From NCBI RefSeq assembly GCF_055900595.2, contig NZ_CM148325.1: DNA of 64,000 nt. One strand, written 5' to 3'. Within the stretch, counting starts at the first letter, position 1. Each line of letters starts with the position of its first letter. The translations under genes were made by a program, and so were the position numbers. This document shows, piece by piece, positions 3,876-10,445 of the stretch. The notes under the pieces are model-generated. The model was not told the DNA's origin, made no database searches, and was given only the letters and a program-made list of their open reading frames with translations.

Positions 3876-4018
3876 GAAACGGGAAAGCCCCTCCCGAGGA
3901 AGGGGCCTTAAATAAGGAAAGGGTCATGATGAAGTGGATCATCATCGTGGTGCTCTTAGTCGTTAGCTACCCAGCTTACTAAGACTACCAGGGCGGGGGA
4001 AACCCCGCTCAACCCTCA
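3876..4018 (-). ncRNA. sib: Sib-family antisense sRNA (antitoxin), copy 1; ends approximate
   Basis: Reverse-strand promoter: -35 TTGACA (4053..4048), 17-bp spacer, -10 TATTTT (4030..4025). Fully antisense to ibs copy 1. Hairpin 3887..3907 plus U-rich tract on the minus strand is the candidate terminator. Confidence 0.6.
3926..3982 (+). CDS. ibs: Ibs-family type I toxin peptide, copy 1 (MMKWIIIVVLLVVSYPAY)
   Basis: 18-codon hydrophobic ORF with ATGATG start and RBS-like aggaaagg upstream, inside the first 328-bp tandem repeat. Matches Ibs toxin family features. Confidence 0.75.
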   Translation: MMKWIIIVVLLVVSYPAY

Positions 4019-4203
4019 CTCCTGAAAATATGCCTTCACGGTCAGAATGTCAATCCGCAGGCTTTGCAGTCTGCGATCCTGCCAGCAAATATTCTTTGCG
4101 AGTCGTTACGCAATAATCACAGATGAAACTATTTTATCTACGCGTTAGCGATAGACTGCATTCAGGGCAAAAGGAGGTAGGCCGACGATTTCAGCGGGAC
4201 GCT

Positions 4204-4346
4204 GAAACGGGAAAGCCCCTCCCGAGGAAGGGGCCTTAAATAAGGAAAGGGTCATGATGAAGCTACTCATCATCGTGGTGCTCTTAGTCATTAGCTTACC
4301 GGCTTACTAAGACTACCAGGGCGGGGGAAACCCCGCTCTACCCTCA
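4204..4346 (-). ncRNA. sib: Sib-family antisense sRNA, copy 2; ends approximate
   Basis: Reverse-strand -35 TTGACA at 4381..4376 with -10 TACTTT at 4358..4353 (17-bp spacer). Antisense to ibs copy 2. Confidence 0.55.
4254..4310 (+). CDS. ibs: Ibs-family type I toxin peptide, copy 2 (MMKLLIIVVLLVISLPAY)
   Basis: Same architecture as copy 1, displaced exactly 328 bp. Confidence 0.75.
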   Translation: MMKLLIIVVLLVISLPAY

Positions 4347-4531
4347 CTCCTGAAAGTATGCTTTCACAATCAGATTGTCAATCCGCAGGCTTTGTAGTCT
4401 GCGATCCTGCCAGCAAATATTCTTTGCGAGACGTTACGCAATAATCACATGTGAAACTATTTTATCTGCAAGTTAGCGATAGACTGCTTGCATGGCGAAA
4501 GGAGGTAGGCCGCCGATTTCAGCGGGACGCT

Positions 4532-4675
4532 GAAACGGGAAAGCCCCTCCCGAGGAAGGGGCCTTAAATAAGGAAAGGGTCATGATGAAGCTACTCATCA
4601 TCGTGGTGCTCTTAGTTATTAGCTGGCCAGCTTACTAAGACTACCAGGGCGGGGGGAAACCCCGCTCTACCCTCA
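4532..4675 (-). ncRNA. sib: Sib-family antisense sRNA, copy 3; ends approximate
   Basis: Reverse-strand -35 TTGACA at 4710..4705; weaker -10 (TAACTT). Antisense to ibs copy 3. Confidence 0.5.
4582..4638 (+). CDS. ibs: Ibs-family type I toxin peptide, copy 3 (MMKLLIIVVLLVISWPAY)
   Basis: Third repeat unit, 328 bp after copy 2; same start context. Confidence 0.75.
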   Translation: MMKLLIIVVLLVISWPAY

Positions 4676-4856: not shown

Positions 4857-5516
4857 ATGAGCGAACAAATCACGTTTGCCACCAGCGATTTTGCCAGTAA
4901 CCCGGAACCACGTTGCCCCTGCATTTTGCTGTTGGATGTTTCTGGTTCGATGAGTGGTAGACCTATTAATGAACTTAACGCCGGATTGGTTGCCTTTCGC
5001 GATGAGCTGCTTGCCGATTCGCTGGCTTTAAAAAGAGTGGAACTCGGTATTGTGACGTTCGGCCCGGTGCATGTGGAACAACCATTTACCAGCGCCGCTA
5101 ATTTTTTCCCGCCCATCCTGTTTGCCCAGGGCGATACACCAATGGGGGCCGCCATTACCAAAGCCCTGGATATGGTTGAGGAGCGCAAACGTGAGTATCG
5201 AGCCAATGGTATTTCCTATTATCGTCCGTGGATTTTCCTGATTACCGATGGCGCACCAACCGATGAGTGGCAGGCTGCTGCCAACAAGGTGTTTCAGGGG
5301 GAAGAAGATAAGAAGTTTGCCTTCTTTTCCATCGGTGTTCAGGGGGCGGATATGAAGACGCTGGCCCAAATCAGCGTTCGTCAGCCTTTGCCTCTTCAAG
5401 GATTACAATTCCGCGAACTGTTTAGCTGGTTATCCAGTTCGCTGCGTTCGGTTTCCCGCTCCACGCCGGGAACGGAAGTTGTACTGGAAGCGCCAAAAGG
5501 CTGGACGTCAGTGTGA
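4857..5516 (+). CDS. yegL: von Willebrand factor A domain protein YegL (219 aa)
   Basis: ATG at 4857 with RBS aaagga. MIDAS-like motif DVSGSM near the N-terminus. Confidence 0.9.
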
Positions 5517-6274
5517 GCTGGCGTCTGGTTTATGCATCAGCCGTTGGAACGTCGCACATCAGCGCTGACTTGTCTTGCCAGGATGCCTGCCAGATGCAGG
5601 TTGCCTGGCTAGAAGACCAGCAGCCATTATTGTCGGTATTTGTCGCTGATGGCGCAGGCAGCGTCTCGCAGGGAGGCGAAGGTGCGAAGCTTGCCGTCAA
5701 TGAAGCGATGGCTTATATATCGCAAAAAGTGCAGGGTGGGGAATTGGAGCTTAATGATGTCCTCGCCACGGATATTGTACTGACTATTCGTCAGCGACTT
5801 TTTGCCGAGGCAGAGGCCAAAGAATTAGCGGTTCGTGATTTTGCCTGCACATTTCTGGGACTGATTTCATCACCTAACGGCACATTGATTATGCAGATTG
5901 GCGATGGTGGCGTGGTGGTAGATTTGGGGCACGGTCTGCAATTGCCGCTCACGCCGATGGTGGGTGAATATGCCAACATGACGCATTTCATTACCGATGA
6001 AGATGCCGTTTCCAGACTGGAAATTTTCACCAGCACTGAGCGTGCGCATAGAGTTGCAGCATTTACGGATGGTATTCAGAGACTGGCGTTAAATATGCTG
6101 GATAATTCTCCGCATGTGCCTTTCTTTACCCCGTTTTTCAATGGACTGGCGTCAGCAACGCAGGAACAACTCGATTTATTACCTGAATTGTTAAAGCAGT
6201 TTTTGTCCAGCCCGGCGGTAAACGAGCGTACGGATGATGATAAAACGTTGGCACTGGCGCTGTGGACAGAATGA
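5513..6274 (+). CDS. yegK: PP2C-family serine/threonine phosphatase YegK/PphC (253 aa)
   Basis: GTG start at 5513 overlapping the yegL stop (GTGA); translation [15 protein letters not shown].... PP2C assignment is from family knowledge. Confidence 0.85.
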
Positions 6275-6338
6275 ACATCGCATGGCGGTTGAAGACAACG
6301 GTTCAACCGCCAGTTTAAGCAATCAATATAATGGCTGG

Positions 6339-6800
6339 CTAGCGAACTAATTTTGCTCTTAGCTCGTCGGCTTCTTCTTTTGGATAGGTGACCAATAAAG
6401 GATCAATGGTATAACCACCGTAAATTTTATCTCCGCGCGTATACATCCAGTCTGAAATATCTTCTTTCTTGATTTTCCACTCCTGGCCATATTCTACGTT
6501 TGTAACAATACCAGGGTCATTGCTTATTATACCAATAAACATGCCGTTAGAATAAGTGACATCCGTGAGCCAGAAATGCTCGGTTTCTCCGCGATCGGTT
6601 ATCGGGGCTTTGACTGCGAAAGTATCAGCATCTTTTTTATTCATAACTTCGATGAATTGATCGGTTTCTTTCCGCGCATGTTGAATGGCGTCAGACATCG
6701 CCTTTTTATCATAACCTCCTGTCACTAACGTATCCGAAATCTCACAATAGCTTGCGGTAGTAAAAAATAGCAGACTCAACATAAGTAATATCTTTTTCAT
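6339..6800 (-). CDS. yegJ: Exported DUF2314-type protein YegJ (153 aa) with N-terminal signal peptide
   Basis: ATG at 6800; N-terminus MKKILLMLSLLFFTTASYC is signal-peptide-like. Lower GC than neighbours. Confidence 0.8.
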   Translation of the reverse strand: MKKILLMLSLLFFTTASYCEISDTLVTGGYDKKAMSDAIQHARKETDQFIEVMNKKDADTFAVKAPITDRGETEHFWLTDVTYSNGMFIGIISNDPGIVTNVEYGQEWKIKKEDISDWMYTRGDKIYGGYTIDPLLVTYPKEEADELRAKLVR

Positions 6801-7000
6801 TTTTTCTCCAGAATCCCTGTGTAGTAAAAGTTAGCAAAAAACCTGTGGAAGTGAATCATTATCAGGTTGGAATTGAATTGTATCCTGATGAAATTGCATT
6901 ATCATTTTTATTCTTGAGTGGGACTCTTCCAATATAGAAATAATTATAATGGACAGTGTTATTATTCATAGAAATATAATATAACTGCCCTTGAAACATT

Positions 7001-8947
7001 ATGAAGACAAATATAAAAGTATTTACATCGACAGGTGAATTGACCACTCTCGGGCGTGAACTGGGCAAAGGCGGCGAAGGTGCGGTTTATGATATCGAGG
7101 AGTTTGTCGATAGCGTTGCCAAGATTTATCACACGCCGCCACCCGCCTTAAAACAGGATAAACTTGCCTTTATGGCTGCGACAGTTGACGCGCAGTTGCT
7201 GAATTATGTCGCCTGGCCGCAGGCAACGCTTCATAGTGGACGAGGTGGGAAGGTTATCGGTTTTATGATGCCGAAGGTTTCAGGTAAAGAACCGATTCAT
7301 ATGATCTATAGCCCGGCACATCGTCGTCAGAGTTACCCTCATTGTGCGTGGGATTTTCTCCTCTATGTTGCGCGCAATATTGCTTCATCTTTTGCTACGG
7401 TTCACGAGCACGGGCACGTCGTGGGTGACGTAAACCAGAACAGCTTTATGGTAGGCCGTGACAGCAAAGTGGTGTTGATTGATAGCGACTCCTTTCAGAT
7501 TAACGCCAATGGAACGCTGCATTTATGCGAAGTGGGCGTGTCGCATTTTACGTCGCCAGAGCTGCAAACCTTGCCATCATTTGTTGGCTTTGAACGCACA
7601 GAAAATCACGATAATTTTGGCCTTGCATTGCTGATTTTTCACGTATTGTTTGGTGGGCGGCATCCTTATTCTGGTGTGCCGCTTATCTCTGATGCGGGTA
7701 ATGCGCTGGAGACGGATATTGCCCATTTTCGTTATGCCTACGCGTCAGACAATCAGAGACGTGGCTTAAAACCGCCGCCACGATCGATTCCGCTATCGAT
7801 GTTACCGGGTGATGTTGCAGCCATGTTTCAGCAGGCGTTCACGGAAAGTGGCGTGGCAACCGGGCGTCCGACGGCAAAAGCGTGGGTTGCGGCACTGGAT
7901 TCTCTACGCCAACAATTAAAGAAATGTACCGTTTCAGCAATGCATGTTTACCCTGGTCATTTAACCGACTGCCCGTGGTGTACACTGGATAATCAAGGCG
8001 TTATCTATTTTATTGATCTTGGCGAAGAGGTGATTACCACCGGCGGTGATTTTGTGCTGGCGAAAGTCTGGGCGATGGTGATGGCGTCAGTAGCACCGCC
8101 AGCACTACAGTTACCATTACCCGATCATTTCCAACCGACTGGCAGGCCGCTTCCTTTAGGCCTGTTACGGCGTGAATACATCATTCTGATTGAGATCGCA
8201 CTGTCAGCGTTATCGCTGTTGCTTTGCGGCCTTCAGGCAGAACCGCGTTATATTATTTTGGTTCCTGTGCTGGCGGCTATCTGGATTATTGGCAGCCTGA
8301 CAAGCAAAGCGTACAAAGCAGAAATCCAGCAACGCCGTGAGGCGTTTAATCGCGCGAAAATGGACTATGACCATTTAGTCAGCCAGATCCAACAGTTGGG
8401 CGGGTTGGAAGGTTTTATCGCCAAACGGACGATGCTCGACAAAATGAAGGACGAAATTCTCGGTTTACCGGAAGAAGAAAAGCGCGCGGTGGCAGCACTT
8501 CACGACACCGCAAGGGAACGGCAGAAGCAGAAGTTTCTGGAGGGATTTTTTATTGATGTTGCCTCTATTCCCGGCGTTGGCCCTGCGCGTAAAGCGGCGT
8601 TACGGTCCTTTGGTATTGAAACGGCGGCAGACGTTACCCGACGGAGCGTTAAGCAAGTTAAAGGTTTTGGTGATCATCTGACCCAGGCGGTTATTGACTG
8701 GAAAGCGAGTTGCGAACGCCGTTTTGTGTTCAGGCCGAATGAAGCGATAATGCCAGCAGACAGACAAGCGGTAATGGCGAAAATGACCGCCAAACGACAT
8801 CGGCTGGAATCGGCGTTGACTGTCGGCGCGACAGAGTTGCAGCGATTCCGCCTTCATGCTCCTGCACGGACCATTCCGTTGATGGAACCATTACGTCAGG
8901 CAGCGGAGAAACTGGCTCAGGCGCAGGCTGATTTAAGCCGCTGCTGA
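7001..8947 (+). CDS. yegI: Atypical Ser/Thr protein kinase-like membrane protein YegI (648 aa)
   Basis: ATG at 7001. Gly-rich loop GKGGEGAVY, catalytic-loop-like HGHVVGDVNQNS, two hydrophobic TM segments (around aa 385-440), C-terminal helix-hairpin-helix motif IPGVGPARKAALRSFG. Confidence 0.9.
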   Translation: MKTNIKVFTSTGELTTLGRELGKGGEGAVYDIEEFVDSVAKIYHTPPPALKQDKLAFMAATVDAQLLNYVAWPQATLHSGRGGKVIGFMMPKVSGKEPIHMIYSPAHRRQSYPHCAWDFLLYVARNIASSFATVHEHGHVVGDVNQNSFMVGRDSKVVLIDSDSFQINANGTLHLCEVGVSHFTSPELQTLPSFVGFERTENHDNFGLALLIFHVLFGGRHPYSGVPLISDAGNALETDIAHFRYAYASDNQRRGLKPPPRSIPLSMLPGDVAAMFQQAFTESGVATGRPTAKAWVAALDSLRQQLKKCTVSAMHVYPGHLTDCPWCTLDNQGVIYFIDLGEEVITTGGDFVLAKVWAMVMASVAPPALQLPLPDHFQPTGRPLPLGLLRREYIILIEIALSALSLLLCGLQAEPRYIILVPVLAAIWIIGSLTSKAYKAEIQQRREAFNRAKMDYDHLVSQIQQLGGLEGFIAKRTMLDKMKDEILGLPEEEKRAVAALHDTARERQKQKFLEGFFIDVASIPGVGPARKAALRSFGIETAADVTRRSVKQVKGFGDHLTQAVIDWKASCERRFVFRPNEAIMPADRQAVMAKMTAKRHRLESALTVGATELQRFRLHAPARTIPLMEPLRQAAEKLAQAQADLSRC

Positions 8948-8959
8948 GCCATTTTTCAA

Positions 8960-10312
8960 TTAACGAAACACCACTTCAGCCCAACGTGCCAGCCCGGCGG
9001 TAACCGACCCAAAGTCATCGCCGCCTGCAATCGGAATGCCCGGCAACTGTTCTGCCAGCGCTTTTTTAATCAGCGGGGATCGGGCGCTACCACCAGTCAG
9101 ATAGATGACATCCGGTTTTTCCTGGGCGTTATCCAGCGCCAGTTGCACCTGTTCCAGAATTCGCGCCAGCGGCTGACTGAGGGCGTTTTCCAGCCCTTGT
9201 TGGCTAATCAGTGTTGCCAGCTCATCGCTGATAAACGGCAGCGATGCGCGGGTTTCCGCTGCGCTGGAAAGGGCGATTTTGCTCTCTTCCGCGCTGCGTA
9301 CCAGCCGATAACTTAAACGCTGACGCCAGACTTTCTGTAACAGGGCCACTTTCGCCGGTTCGCGGGCGTCGCGTACCAGGTCGTTAAGCAGACGACCGTT
9401 AGCACTACTGTAGAAATCACTCTGCGCAGGTACATCGTTGATGGCAACCGCATTCCACCACGGCAGAATCGGCAGGGCGATGCCTTTTTCGGTTTCGCCA
9501 CCCATGCCCAGTAACGGCATCAGGTTTTTAAACGCCAGCGCGATATCCAGATCGTTACCACCAATACGGCAACCACTATGACCCAGCAGGCTGGCTTCAC
9601 GATCGAGACGCGAACGCCACTGTGGCCCCATTAGCAGTAAAGAACAGTCAGTCGTACCACCACCAATATCCACCACCAGCACCCGTTTTTCTTCCTGCAA
9701 GGTGGCTTCGTAATCCAGCCCAGCCGCCACCGGCTCGTACTGGAATACCACATCCTTAAACCCGGCACGCTTCGCTGCGCGCTCCAGAATCCCTTGTGCC
9801 TGGGCGTTTGCTTCATCGCCGCCCAGCCCCTGGAAGTTGATCGGGCGACCAATCACCGCCTGGGTAATCGCTTCTGGCAATTGCGCCTGTGCCTGTTGGC
9901 GAATGTGCAGCATCATTGCGCAGACCAGATCCTCAAACAGCGCTACCTGCTGCGGTTTTAAGCCGCTGGCACCGAGGAACGATTTTGGTGATTTCACAAA
10001 CCACACTTCTTCCGGATCATCAATGTATTGTGCCAGTGAAGAAAGACCGAACTGCACGCTTTTCGCCGTGACATCGATATCTTCTTCGCGGTTATAACGA
10101 ATCGCCCGACGCAGCAGCGCCTGCGTTTCATCGTCGTCTGCCGGAACATCATGATGGCGGTACAGCCATTCGCTTACGGCTTCACGCGTTGGCGCGCAAA
10201 GCATTGAAGGCAGCAGCGTGCTGTCGTTTTCCATTTTTAGCAAATGCGGTTTACCGTCACGCATGACCGCCACTGAACAGTTTGCTGTACCGTAATCAAA
10301 ACCAATAAACAC
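8960..10312 (-). CDS. yegD: Hsp70-like (actin-fold ATPase) protein YegD (450 aa)
   Basis: Track ORF 8960..10375 trimmed to GTG at 10312 (VFIGFDYGTANCSVAV...). DxG ATPase motifs FIGFDYGT and DIGGGTTD. Confidence 0.85.
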   Translation of the reverse strand: MFIGFDYGTANCSVAVMRDGKPHLLKMENDSTLLPSMLCAPTREAVSEWLYRHHDVPADDDETQALLRRAIRYNREEDIDVTAKSVQFGLSSLAQYIDDPEEVWFVKSPKSFLGASGLKPQQVALFEDLVCAMMLHIRQQAQAQLPEAITQAVIGRPINFQGLGGDEANAQAQGILERAAKRAGFKDVVFQYEPVAAGLDYEATLQEEKRVLVVDIGGGTTDCSLLLMGPQWRSRLDREASLLGHSGCRIGGNDLDIALAFKNLMPLLGMGGETEKGIALPILPWWNAVAINDVPAQSDFYSSANGRLLNDLVRDAREPAKVALLQKVWRQRLSYRLVRSAEESKIALSSAAETRASLPFISDELATLISQQGLENALSQPLARILEQVQLALDNAQEKPDVIYLTGGSARSPLIKKALAEQLPGIPIAGGDDFGSVTAGLARWAEVVFR

Positions 10313-10445
10313 GAAATAATCCCCATGCCGGTGAAGAAGGGGCGTGACTTTAGCGAAATGTTGCCGTCGCGACAACCGGAATATGAAAGCAAAGCGCAGC
10401 GTCTGAATAACGTTTATGCTGAAAGCGGATAAACAAGGAGAAGCG

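Follow-up and report, generated by a model that had tools for sequence, protein, structure and literature searches.

YegI of Escherichia coli: a membrane-anchored Ser/Thr kinase in a mobile TerY-P-type triad, with a predicted nucleic-acid-binding tail

We analysed a 64,000-nucleotide stretch of DNA from NCBI RefSeq assembly GCF_055900595.2, contig NZ_CM148325.1 (hereafter the window, in whose numbering all positions are given), and focused on yegI, the gene of a Ser/Thr protein kinase of Escherichia coli, at positions 7001–8947 of the plus strand. YegL, PphC and YegI form a self-contained, horizontally mobile phosphorylation triad of the TerY-P type, a type that consists, in the passages on it in PMC11090510, PMC4978471 and PMC7699616, of a von Willebrand factor A (vWA) protein resembling TerY, a PP2C phosphatase and a Ser/Thr kinase. 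Our preferred reading, to which we assign a probability of roughly 0.55, is that YegI serves as the kinase of this triad and is a membrane-tethered cytoplasmic sensor whose C-terminal helix-hairpin-helix (HhH) tail binds nucleic acid. For the yegI gene, prior knowledge extends to its kinase activity, membrane topology and HhH annotation; the linkage of the triad across about 80 loci is what this analysis adds. E. coli has very few Hanks-type kinases, YegI being one of them. Its vWA-PP2C-kinase cassette is strictly conserved and has spread by horizontal gene transfer (HGT) from E. coli to methanogenic archaea, and its tail is a well-conserved (HhH)2 domain with canonical hairpins; taken together, these findings yield a concrete and cheaply testable hypothesis, namely that nucleic acid activates YegI at the membrane and that the system responds to stress or to invaders.

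A conserved vWA-PP2C-kinase cassette

The triad in the window starts with yegL (4857–5516, plus strand), whose 219-amino-acid product is a stand-alone vWA protein recognised by Pfam VWA. It continues with pphC, also named yegK (5513–6274, plus strand), which encodes a PP2C phosphatase (Pfam PP2C_2, E = 3.7e-52), and ends with yegI. We counted the triad in about 80 loci that offered enough upstream DNA, archaeal ones included, together with five context look-ups. Wherever the upstream DNA sufficed, the order was vWA, PP2C, kinase without exception, with genes that usually abut or overlap, and it holds across Proteobacteria, Paenibacillus, Actinobacteria, Planctomycetota, Acidobacteria and Methanoregula archaea. 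The Results and Discussion of the study of YegI by Rajagopalan and Dworkin (bioRxiv 10.1101/819920; FEBS Lett 2020 according to PMC13232886), the sections to which all our citations of that study refer, handle the kinase and the phosphatase as a pair and describe no triad with YegL.

Outside Escherichia, the PP2C gene directly precedes the kinase gene at every locus. In the window the two are separated by yegJ (DUF2314; 6339–6800, minus strand, with flanks at 6275–7000), a lineage-specific gene in a region of low GC content (0.32–0.42), which 1924 of 5426 complete E. coli genomes (35%) carry and every non-Escherichia triad lacks. yegJ is an insertion that splits the ancestral pphC-yegI junction and lies outside the ancestral cassette. 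A 2026 paper ties YegJ to RNase E and to the induction of yegD. A yegI promoter inside the insertion was also considered and is not supported: a simple scan for sigma-70-like sites on the plus strand between 6530 and 7001 returned none, with counts not above those of shuffled controls.

YegL is the best-conserved member of the triad, with a median identity of 66%, compared with 41% for PphC and about 40% for its partners, and the proteins of E. coli and Methanoregula are still about 60% identical. The residues of its metal-ion-dependent adhesion site (MIDAS), D27, S29, S31, T94 and D131, are complete and at least 97% conserved. This pattern of conservation suggests that YegL is under the tightest constraint within the system and is possibly its output.

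We found no recurrent fourth gene when 807 flanking open reading frames (ORFs) from about 75 loci were clustered, the largest cluster covering eight loci. The idea of a fourth member was accordingly rejected: the largest cluster is a TetR regulator in Competibacteraceae, and the others are periplasmic binding proteins, acyl-CoA synthetases and the like. A TetR-family regulator next to the triad was seen in Competibacteraceae and Klebsiella (9 of 139 nearest neighbours), 30–170 bp downstream in loci L044, L059, L061, L064, L068, L072 and others and upstream in L004/L009; possibly it regulates the triad locally.

Spread and stability of the YegI family

An exhaustive search with residues 307–648 of YegI retrieved 2,173 cluster representatives at E ≤ 1e-3. 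Nearly all full-length members of the family are about 640–655 amino acids long and are matched at about residues 305–645, and this near-constant length and match position indicate that the whole layout belongs to an old, stable family. A reading of this DNA made beforehand from the sequence alone (hereafter the sequence-only reading) had considered the architecture an unusual combination, a view that does not survive the finding of the same layout in more than 2,000 cluster representatives.

When each species was represented by one genome, a scan recovered at least 545 relatives, distributed over the Proteobacteria (Beta-, Gamma-, Alpha- and Delta-), Paenibacillus, Actinobacteria, Planctomycetota, Acidobacteria, Chlorobi, Synergistetes and archaea (Methanoregula/Methanomicrobiales). 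The distribution is patchy and HGT-like, with 35–62% identity maintained across phyla and into archaea, and copies reside on megaplasmids, including pQBR103. Two separate vWA-PP2C-YegI triads were observed in a single genome of Caballeronia jiangsuensis, on two contigs (L057 and L082).

A phage-borne origin was rejected, as 50,697 phage records contained a single weak and partial YegI-like match. Three PHROG families, phrog_28389, phrog_37072 and phrog_37888, match YegL, PphC and YegI end to end (507, 483 and 1495 bits, respectively); these are probably chromosomal DNA caught in prophage predictions.

YegI is a divergent but active kinase

Positions 7001–8947 hold a genuine ORF on the plus strand that encodes the 648-residue inner-membrane Ser/Thr kinase YegI of E. 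coli, as called from the DNA and by 100% identity to RefSeq genes annotated ‘protein kinase YegI’; the antisense strand across the same interval is rich in stop codons. Of 5426 complete E. coli genomes, 5410 contain DNA homologous to yegI, and the protein encoded in the window is 94–97% identical to common E. coli alleles. A sequence search found no solved structure of a close relative. We built a full-length AlphaFold2 (AF2) model on an alignment of 77 diverse YegI relatives (mean predicted local distance difference test score, pLDDT, 94.4; predicted template modelling score, pTM, 0.83), and conservation was likewise assessed over 77 homologues, which are 33–62% identical. YegI is a divergent yet catalytically active Hanks-type Ser/Thr kinase with a two-helix anchor in the inner membrane and the rest of the protein in the cytoplasm.

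The kinase domain comprises residues 1–300 (7001–7900, plus strand; pLDDT 95–99). Its fold, which the sequence-only reading had assumed, was recovered by AF2 and by Foldseek, which aligned about 300 columns to PknB, CaMKII, BRAF and Aurora in the PDB (target TM-score, TMt, 0.65–0.74; E about 1e-7). The glycine-rich loop GKGGEGAVY and the non-canonical catalytic loop HGHVVGDVNQNS that it had pointed out were located at residues 22–30 and 137–148. In place of the canonical HRDxxxxN and DFG motifs, YegI has VGDVNQNS and DSD. Across the family, the catalytic loop has the consensus GDVNQGN, with Asn at D+5 in 45 of the 77 homologues and NS there in the E. coli clade, and the consensus at the DFG position is DCDS. 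G24, K41, D143, N145 and D161 are invariant (77/77), and S164 of the DSDS motif (residues 161–164) is kept in 76.

According to 10.1101/819920, YegI autophosphorylates on serines, an activity abolished by K39D and by D141N; the published K39, D141 and S162 correspond to K41, D143 and S164 in the 648-residue numbering. The same study reports that the enzyme prefers Mn2+ over Mg2+ and is sensitive to staurosporine, that DSD is essential and its substitution by DFG inactivating, that S162 (S164) is essential as well, and that the kinetics of autophosphorylation are second order. The autophosphorylation sites identified there, S602 and S644 (S604 and S646 here), lie on the terminal helix, and neither is conserved among our 77 homologues. 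PphC dephosphorylates YegI in vitro (10.1101/303594).

Since the published assays show an active kinase with an essential Lys and Asp, the description of the kinase core as ‘degenerate’ in the sequence-only reading is wrong. These assays also refute the idea that YegI is a degenerate pseudokinase serving as a scaffold, which we find hardly credible, even if several features would suit it: the protein has no Pfam Pkinase match at E up to 1; VGD stands for HRD, DSD for DFG and Ser at the position of the catalytic-loop Asn; and a Yersinia member of ‘Yegi1’, a family in a classification of bacterial kinases, is listed as a pseudokinase (PMC12599244). Against this stand an autophosphorylation that is lost in K39D and D141N, staurosporine-sensitive and dependent on Mn or Mg (10.1101/819920), and the invariance of K41, D143, N145 and D161 in all 77 homologues. 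Pfam Pkinase matches 64 of the 77 relatives at E ≤ 0.01, with a best value of 3.4e-10.

A zinc module, a membrane hairpin and a cytoplasmic stalk

The kinase domain is followed by a CHCC zinc-finger or zinc-ribbon-like module (residues 305–331; 7913–7993, plus strand), which AF2 models as a beta-hairpin (306–318) and a helix (325–331) with pLDDT 94–96. The Cys/His cluster CTVSAMHVYPGHLTDCPWC had been noticed from the sequence alone and is indeed present at residues 309–327; its spacing had been misassigned as C-x6-H-x5-C-x2-C and is actually C309-x5-H315-x8-C324-x2-C327. These four ligands are invariant (77/77), and H320 is kept in only 31 of the homologues.

Two hydrophobic segments, likewise noticed beforehand, were placed by hydropathy and AF2 helices at about residues 391–411 and 417–437. 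They form a transmembrane (TM) hairpin, TM1 and TM2, joined by a five-residue loop (8171–8311, plus strand). A hydrophobic stretch of 35–50 residues occurs at the same position in all 77 homologues, this region being conserved in hydrophobicity only. The topology agrees with the PhoA-LacZ fusions of 10.1101/819920, which place two TM helices at about residues 390–439 and both termini in the cytoplasm. As the periplasmic loop has only five residues, YegI cannot possess a dedicated domain for periplasmic sensing, and its input would have to be cytoplasmic or membrane-proximal. A cytoplasmic helical stalk follows (residues 438–513; 8312–8539, plus strand; AF2 secondary structure, pLDDT 96–98), in which TM2 extends as one helix to residue 467 and is succeeded by three further helices. 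The coiled-coil region predicted by the sequence-only reading corresponds in the AF2 model to a series of long helices (417–467, 469–487, 489–502, 504–513 and 585–647).

A conserved (HhH)2 tail

Beyond the stalk, AF2 predicts a compact five-helix domain of the (HhH)2 or SAM-like fold (residues 516–573; 8546–8719, plus strand), with hairpins G525-V-G527 and G555-F-G557, and then a long C-terminal helix (585–647; 8753–8941, plus strand). The HhH-like motif IPGVGPARKAALRSFGIETAADV of the sequence-only reading was found at residues 523–545 within this domain. Because a second motif, VKGFGDHLTQAVI, follows at residues 553–565, the tail is an (HhH)2 domain and not a single motif. G527 is present in 73 of the 77 homologues, and both G555 and G557 in 74; the basic residues R530 and K531, just after the first hairpin, are kept in 59 and 49, respectively. 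The block as a whole is conserved about as strongly as the kinase domain (0.61 versus 0.58). Kept across relatives of 33–62% identity, the kinase residues, the zinc ligands and the hairpins are no chance matches. Pfam HHH_5 matches 30 of the 77 relatives at E ≤ 0.01, and a profile of the family matches HhH proteins of the PDB at E = 0.002–1, the best matches being DNA-binding HhH domains (Pol IV, REV1, RAD51, Hel308, UvrC and ComEA). Such a pattern, of intact G-h-G hairpins and mostly conserved basic residues, is typical of HhH motifs that bind the DNA backbone and is usually degenerate in versions that bind only protein.

Together, the model and the conservation support the (HhH)2 fold of the tail as real and widely conserved, and from the same features we infer that the tail may bind nucleic acid. 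Databases already label YegI a ‘helix-hairpin-helix domain-containing protein’, and its relatives carry the JGI label ‘DNA-binding helix-hairpin-helix protein with protein kinase domain’. The Cys/His finger and the HhH tail are unmentioned in the Results and Discussion of 10.1101/819920.

The tail could instead be a protein-protein or dimerisation module, in the manner of NusA-AR2/alpha-CTD, ERCC1-XPF or SAM domains, that pairs YegI molecules or docks YegL, PphC or substrates, so that oligomerisation drives autophosphorylation without DNA. We judge this rather unlikely. Both hairpins carry the canonical G-h-G (73–74 of 77), R530 and K531 are mostly conserved, and the top profile matches are DNA-binding domains; moreover, other TerY-P kinases have an OB fold or a zinc ribbon at the same end (PMC11090510).

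Several family members of 780–1006 amino acids (P0164, P0166, P0174, P0179, P0193, P0199, P0245 and P0269) add TPR and/or bacterial SH3 domains at the C terminus. No enzymatic effector domain was found in these longer members, only TPR and SH3. These additions indicate that the end of the tail is where extra recognition modules attach, and, together with the conserved cytoplasmic (HhH)2 domain, they make the tail the obvious input end of the protein.

A proposed model for activation and role

In the reading that we prefer, the (HhH)2 tail, in which both GhG hairpins are canonical and basic residues are conserved, would bind nucleic acid without sequence specificity and thereby gather YegI molecules on the membrane. 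Such gathering would drive trans-autophosphorylation of the DSDS segment at S164; activation by clustering is proposed because autophosphorylation is second order. The active kinase would then phosphorylate its targets, possibly YegL, whose MIDAS may read out or propagate the signal, and PphC would reset the system. Biologically, such a system most probably responds to stress or to invaders (phage or plasmid DNA).

The genomic neighbourhoods of the triad are suggestive of a link to defence, though not decisive. Two of the first four contexts that we inspected are unmistakable defence or mobile islands: in Piscinibacter the triad adjoins BrxR, JetB, SNase, ScoMcrA, an SLFN helicase and MazG, and in Chromobacterium it adjoins AbiH, a KAP NTPase and Tn7-like genes. 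Mrr, PIN, WYL, GajA, JetA, PifA, UzuA and the like make up a minority of the 139 nearest neighbours, most of which are unrelated.

A number of observations weigh against the proposed nucleic-acid-sensing role. As regards the tail, Pfam HHH_5 scores the YegI of the window at 21.7 bits, below its cut-off of 27, the isolated (HhH)2 domain has no Foldseek match at E ≤ 0.001, and no DNA- or RNA-binding experiment on YegI was found in the Results and Discussion of 10.1101/819920. As regards the role, the triad is flanked in other genomes mostly by housekeeping genes or regulators, and the locus is near-universal and fixed in position in E. coli (5410/5426), unlike typical accessory defence systems. 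Expression of yegLKI is described, in the parts of the literature available to us, as undetected under laboratory conditions, with weak stationary-phase expression also reported, and no phenotype of yegLKI is reported there. Finally, of the TerY-P models in PADLOC, that for TerY matches YegL at E = 0.012 (13 bits) and none matches PphC.

Some of these observations would fit a housekeeping or abiotic-stress module (metal or tellurite, membrane, stationary phase) that is unrelated to foreign DNA, whose tail may tether YegI to the nucleoid or to repair; we consider this possible but on balance doubtful. It would accord with the near-core, syntenic position of the locus in E. coli, the weak stationary-phase expression, the failure of the PADLOC defence models to recognise the triad, and the many non-Escherichia copies that lie amid metabolic genes, TetR regulators and transport genes. 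TerY-P triads were, moreover, first linked to tellurite and metal stress, as recounted in the section on them in PMC11090510, and alkA, the gene of a DNA-repair glycosylase, lies near yegI in E. coli. It accords poorly, however, with the patchy, HGT-like spread at 35–62% identity across phyla and archaea, with plasmid-borne copies and two triads in one genome, and with the copies in unmistakable defence islands. No ter genes accompany the triad, and the linkage to alkA and yegD is confined to Escherichia.

A stronger version of the nucleic-acid-sensing reading, which we regard as distinctly unlikely, is that YegL-PphC-YegI works by itself in immunity or surveillance, overlooked by current defence finders although almost all E. 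coli have it. Here the kinase would sit at the inner membrane on its cytoplasmic side, its tail would detect DNA entering by phage injection or conjugation, the kinase would cluster and autophosphorylate and trigger a response by way of the highly conserved vWA protein, and PphC would keep the system off in uninfected cells.

If nucleic-acid activation at the membrane is correct, it would explain a ‘silent’ near-core operon of E. coli and extend the TerY-P family by a variant tethered to the membrane; if it is wrong, the locus stays an ordinary, already annotated signalling kinase.

Surrounding genes and strain lineage

The order of genes in the window is mdtABC, ibs toxins, yegL, pphC/yegK, yegJ, yegI, yegD and alkA. 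Just upstream of yegL are three tandem ORFs for Ibs-family type I toxins of 17–18 amino acids (about 3929–4638, plus strand), identified from the RefSeq annotation of an identical strain (L001, 4929–5638). Downstream of yegI, yegD (8960–10375, minus strand) was called mechanically from a TTG as an ORF of 471 amino acids; NCBIfam PRK11678 aligns from residue 22 and RefSeq gives 450 amino acids, and the real start is probably 63 nucleotides downstream of the mechanical TTG.

The yegI gene of the window is 90–95% identical to that of most E. coli genomes and 100% identical to that of about 9–11 complete genomes. The same bands of identity were obtained at 500–2400, 4857–6274, 7001–8947 and 8960–10375, which include mdtB, yegL-pphC and yegD. 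With the same divergence at every tested gene, the window evidently comes from a rare divergent Escherichia lineage; diversification specific to yegI was rejected, as yegL-pphC, yegD and mdtB are equally divergent.

Comparison with known systems

YegI shares with Hanks-type receptor kinases such as PknB, PrkC and PpkA the bilobal fold, the glycine-rich loop and the catalytic Lys and Asp; like them, it is activated through autophosphorylation and is partnered by a PP2C phosphatase. It differs from them in having GD for HRD, DSD for DFG and a shifted Asn, and in lacking a PASTA-type extracytoplasmic sensor, in place of which it has a membrane hairpin with a five-residue loop and a cytoplasmic tail. 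Two other proteins resemble it in the tail. ComEA, the DNA receptor of competence and a weak profile match, is likewise a membrane-tethered protein with an (HhH)2 domain, which binds DNA without sequence specificity; its HhH faces outward or into the periplasm and is not accompanied by an enzymatic domain, whereas the tail of YegI is cytoplasmic (10.1101/819920). DisA, the DNA integrity scanning protein, is a diadenylate cyclase that forms a soluble octamer with no membrane anchor, in contrast to the membrane kinase YegI, and we claim no homology between the two beyond the HhH fold.

Among the defence models of PADLOC, the YegI kinase was matched only weakly, by PD-T4-6 (E = 2.7e-5) and MkoA. 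PD-T4-6 and Stk2 are kinase-based antiphage systems, in which a Ser/Thr kinase is the central defence component; the similarity to YegI is distant and confined to the kinase domain, and these systems have neither vWA and PP2C partners nor a tail of zinc finger, TM hairpin and (HhH)2.

The closest parallel is the TerY-P triad of Anantharaman et al. (2012) and Gao et al. (2020), as recounted in PMC11090510, PMC4978471 and PMC7699616. Membership as defined by the PADLOC TerY-P models is not supported by these profile hidden Markov models (HMMs), and because the models miss the E. coli proteins, we describe the triad as TerY-P-like by architecture and not as a member by profile. Both consist of three adjacent genes for a vWA protein, a PP2C phosphatase and a Ser/Thr kinase, and both are mobile and sometimes found in defence or restriction neighbourhoods, whereas the YegI triad shows no linkage to ter, CoCoNuT or McrBC genes. 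In the section of PMC11090510 devoted to them, TerY-P kinases end in a zinc ribbon (the CoCoNuT-linked form) or in an OB fold (the Gao 2020 form), and one OB-fold triad is described there and in the corresponding part of PMC7699616 as shown to be antiphage. As in the TerY-P kinase, where a zinc ribbon comes straight after the kinase domain, a CHCC finger stands at this point in YegI; unlike the antiphage TerY-P kinase, YegI then continues into a TM hairpin, a stalk of helices and an (HhH)2 domain, which together stand where that kinase has its OB fold.

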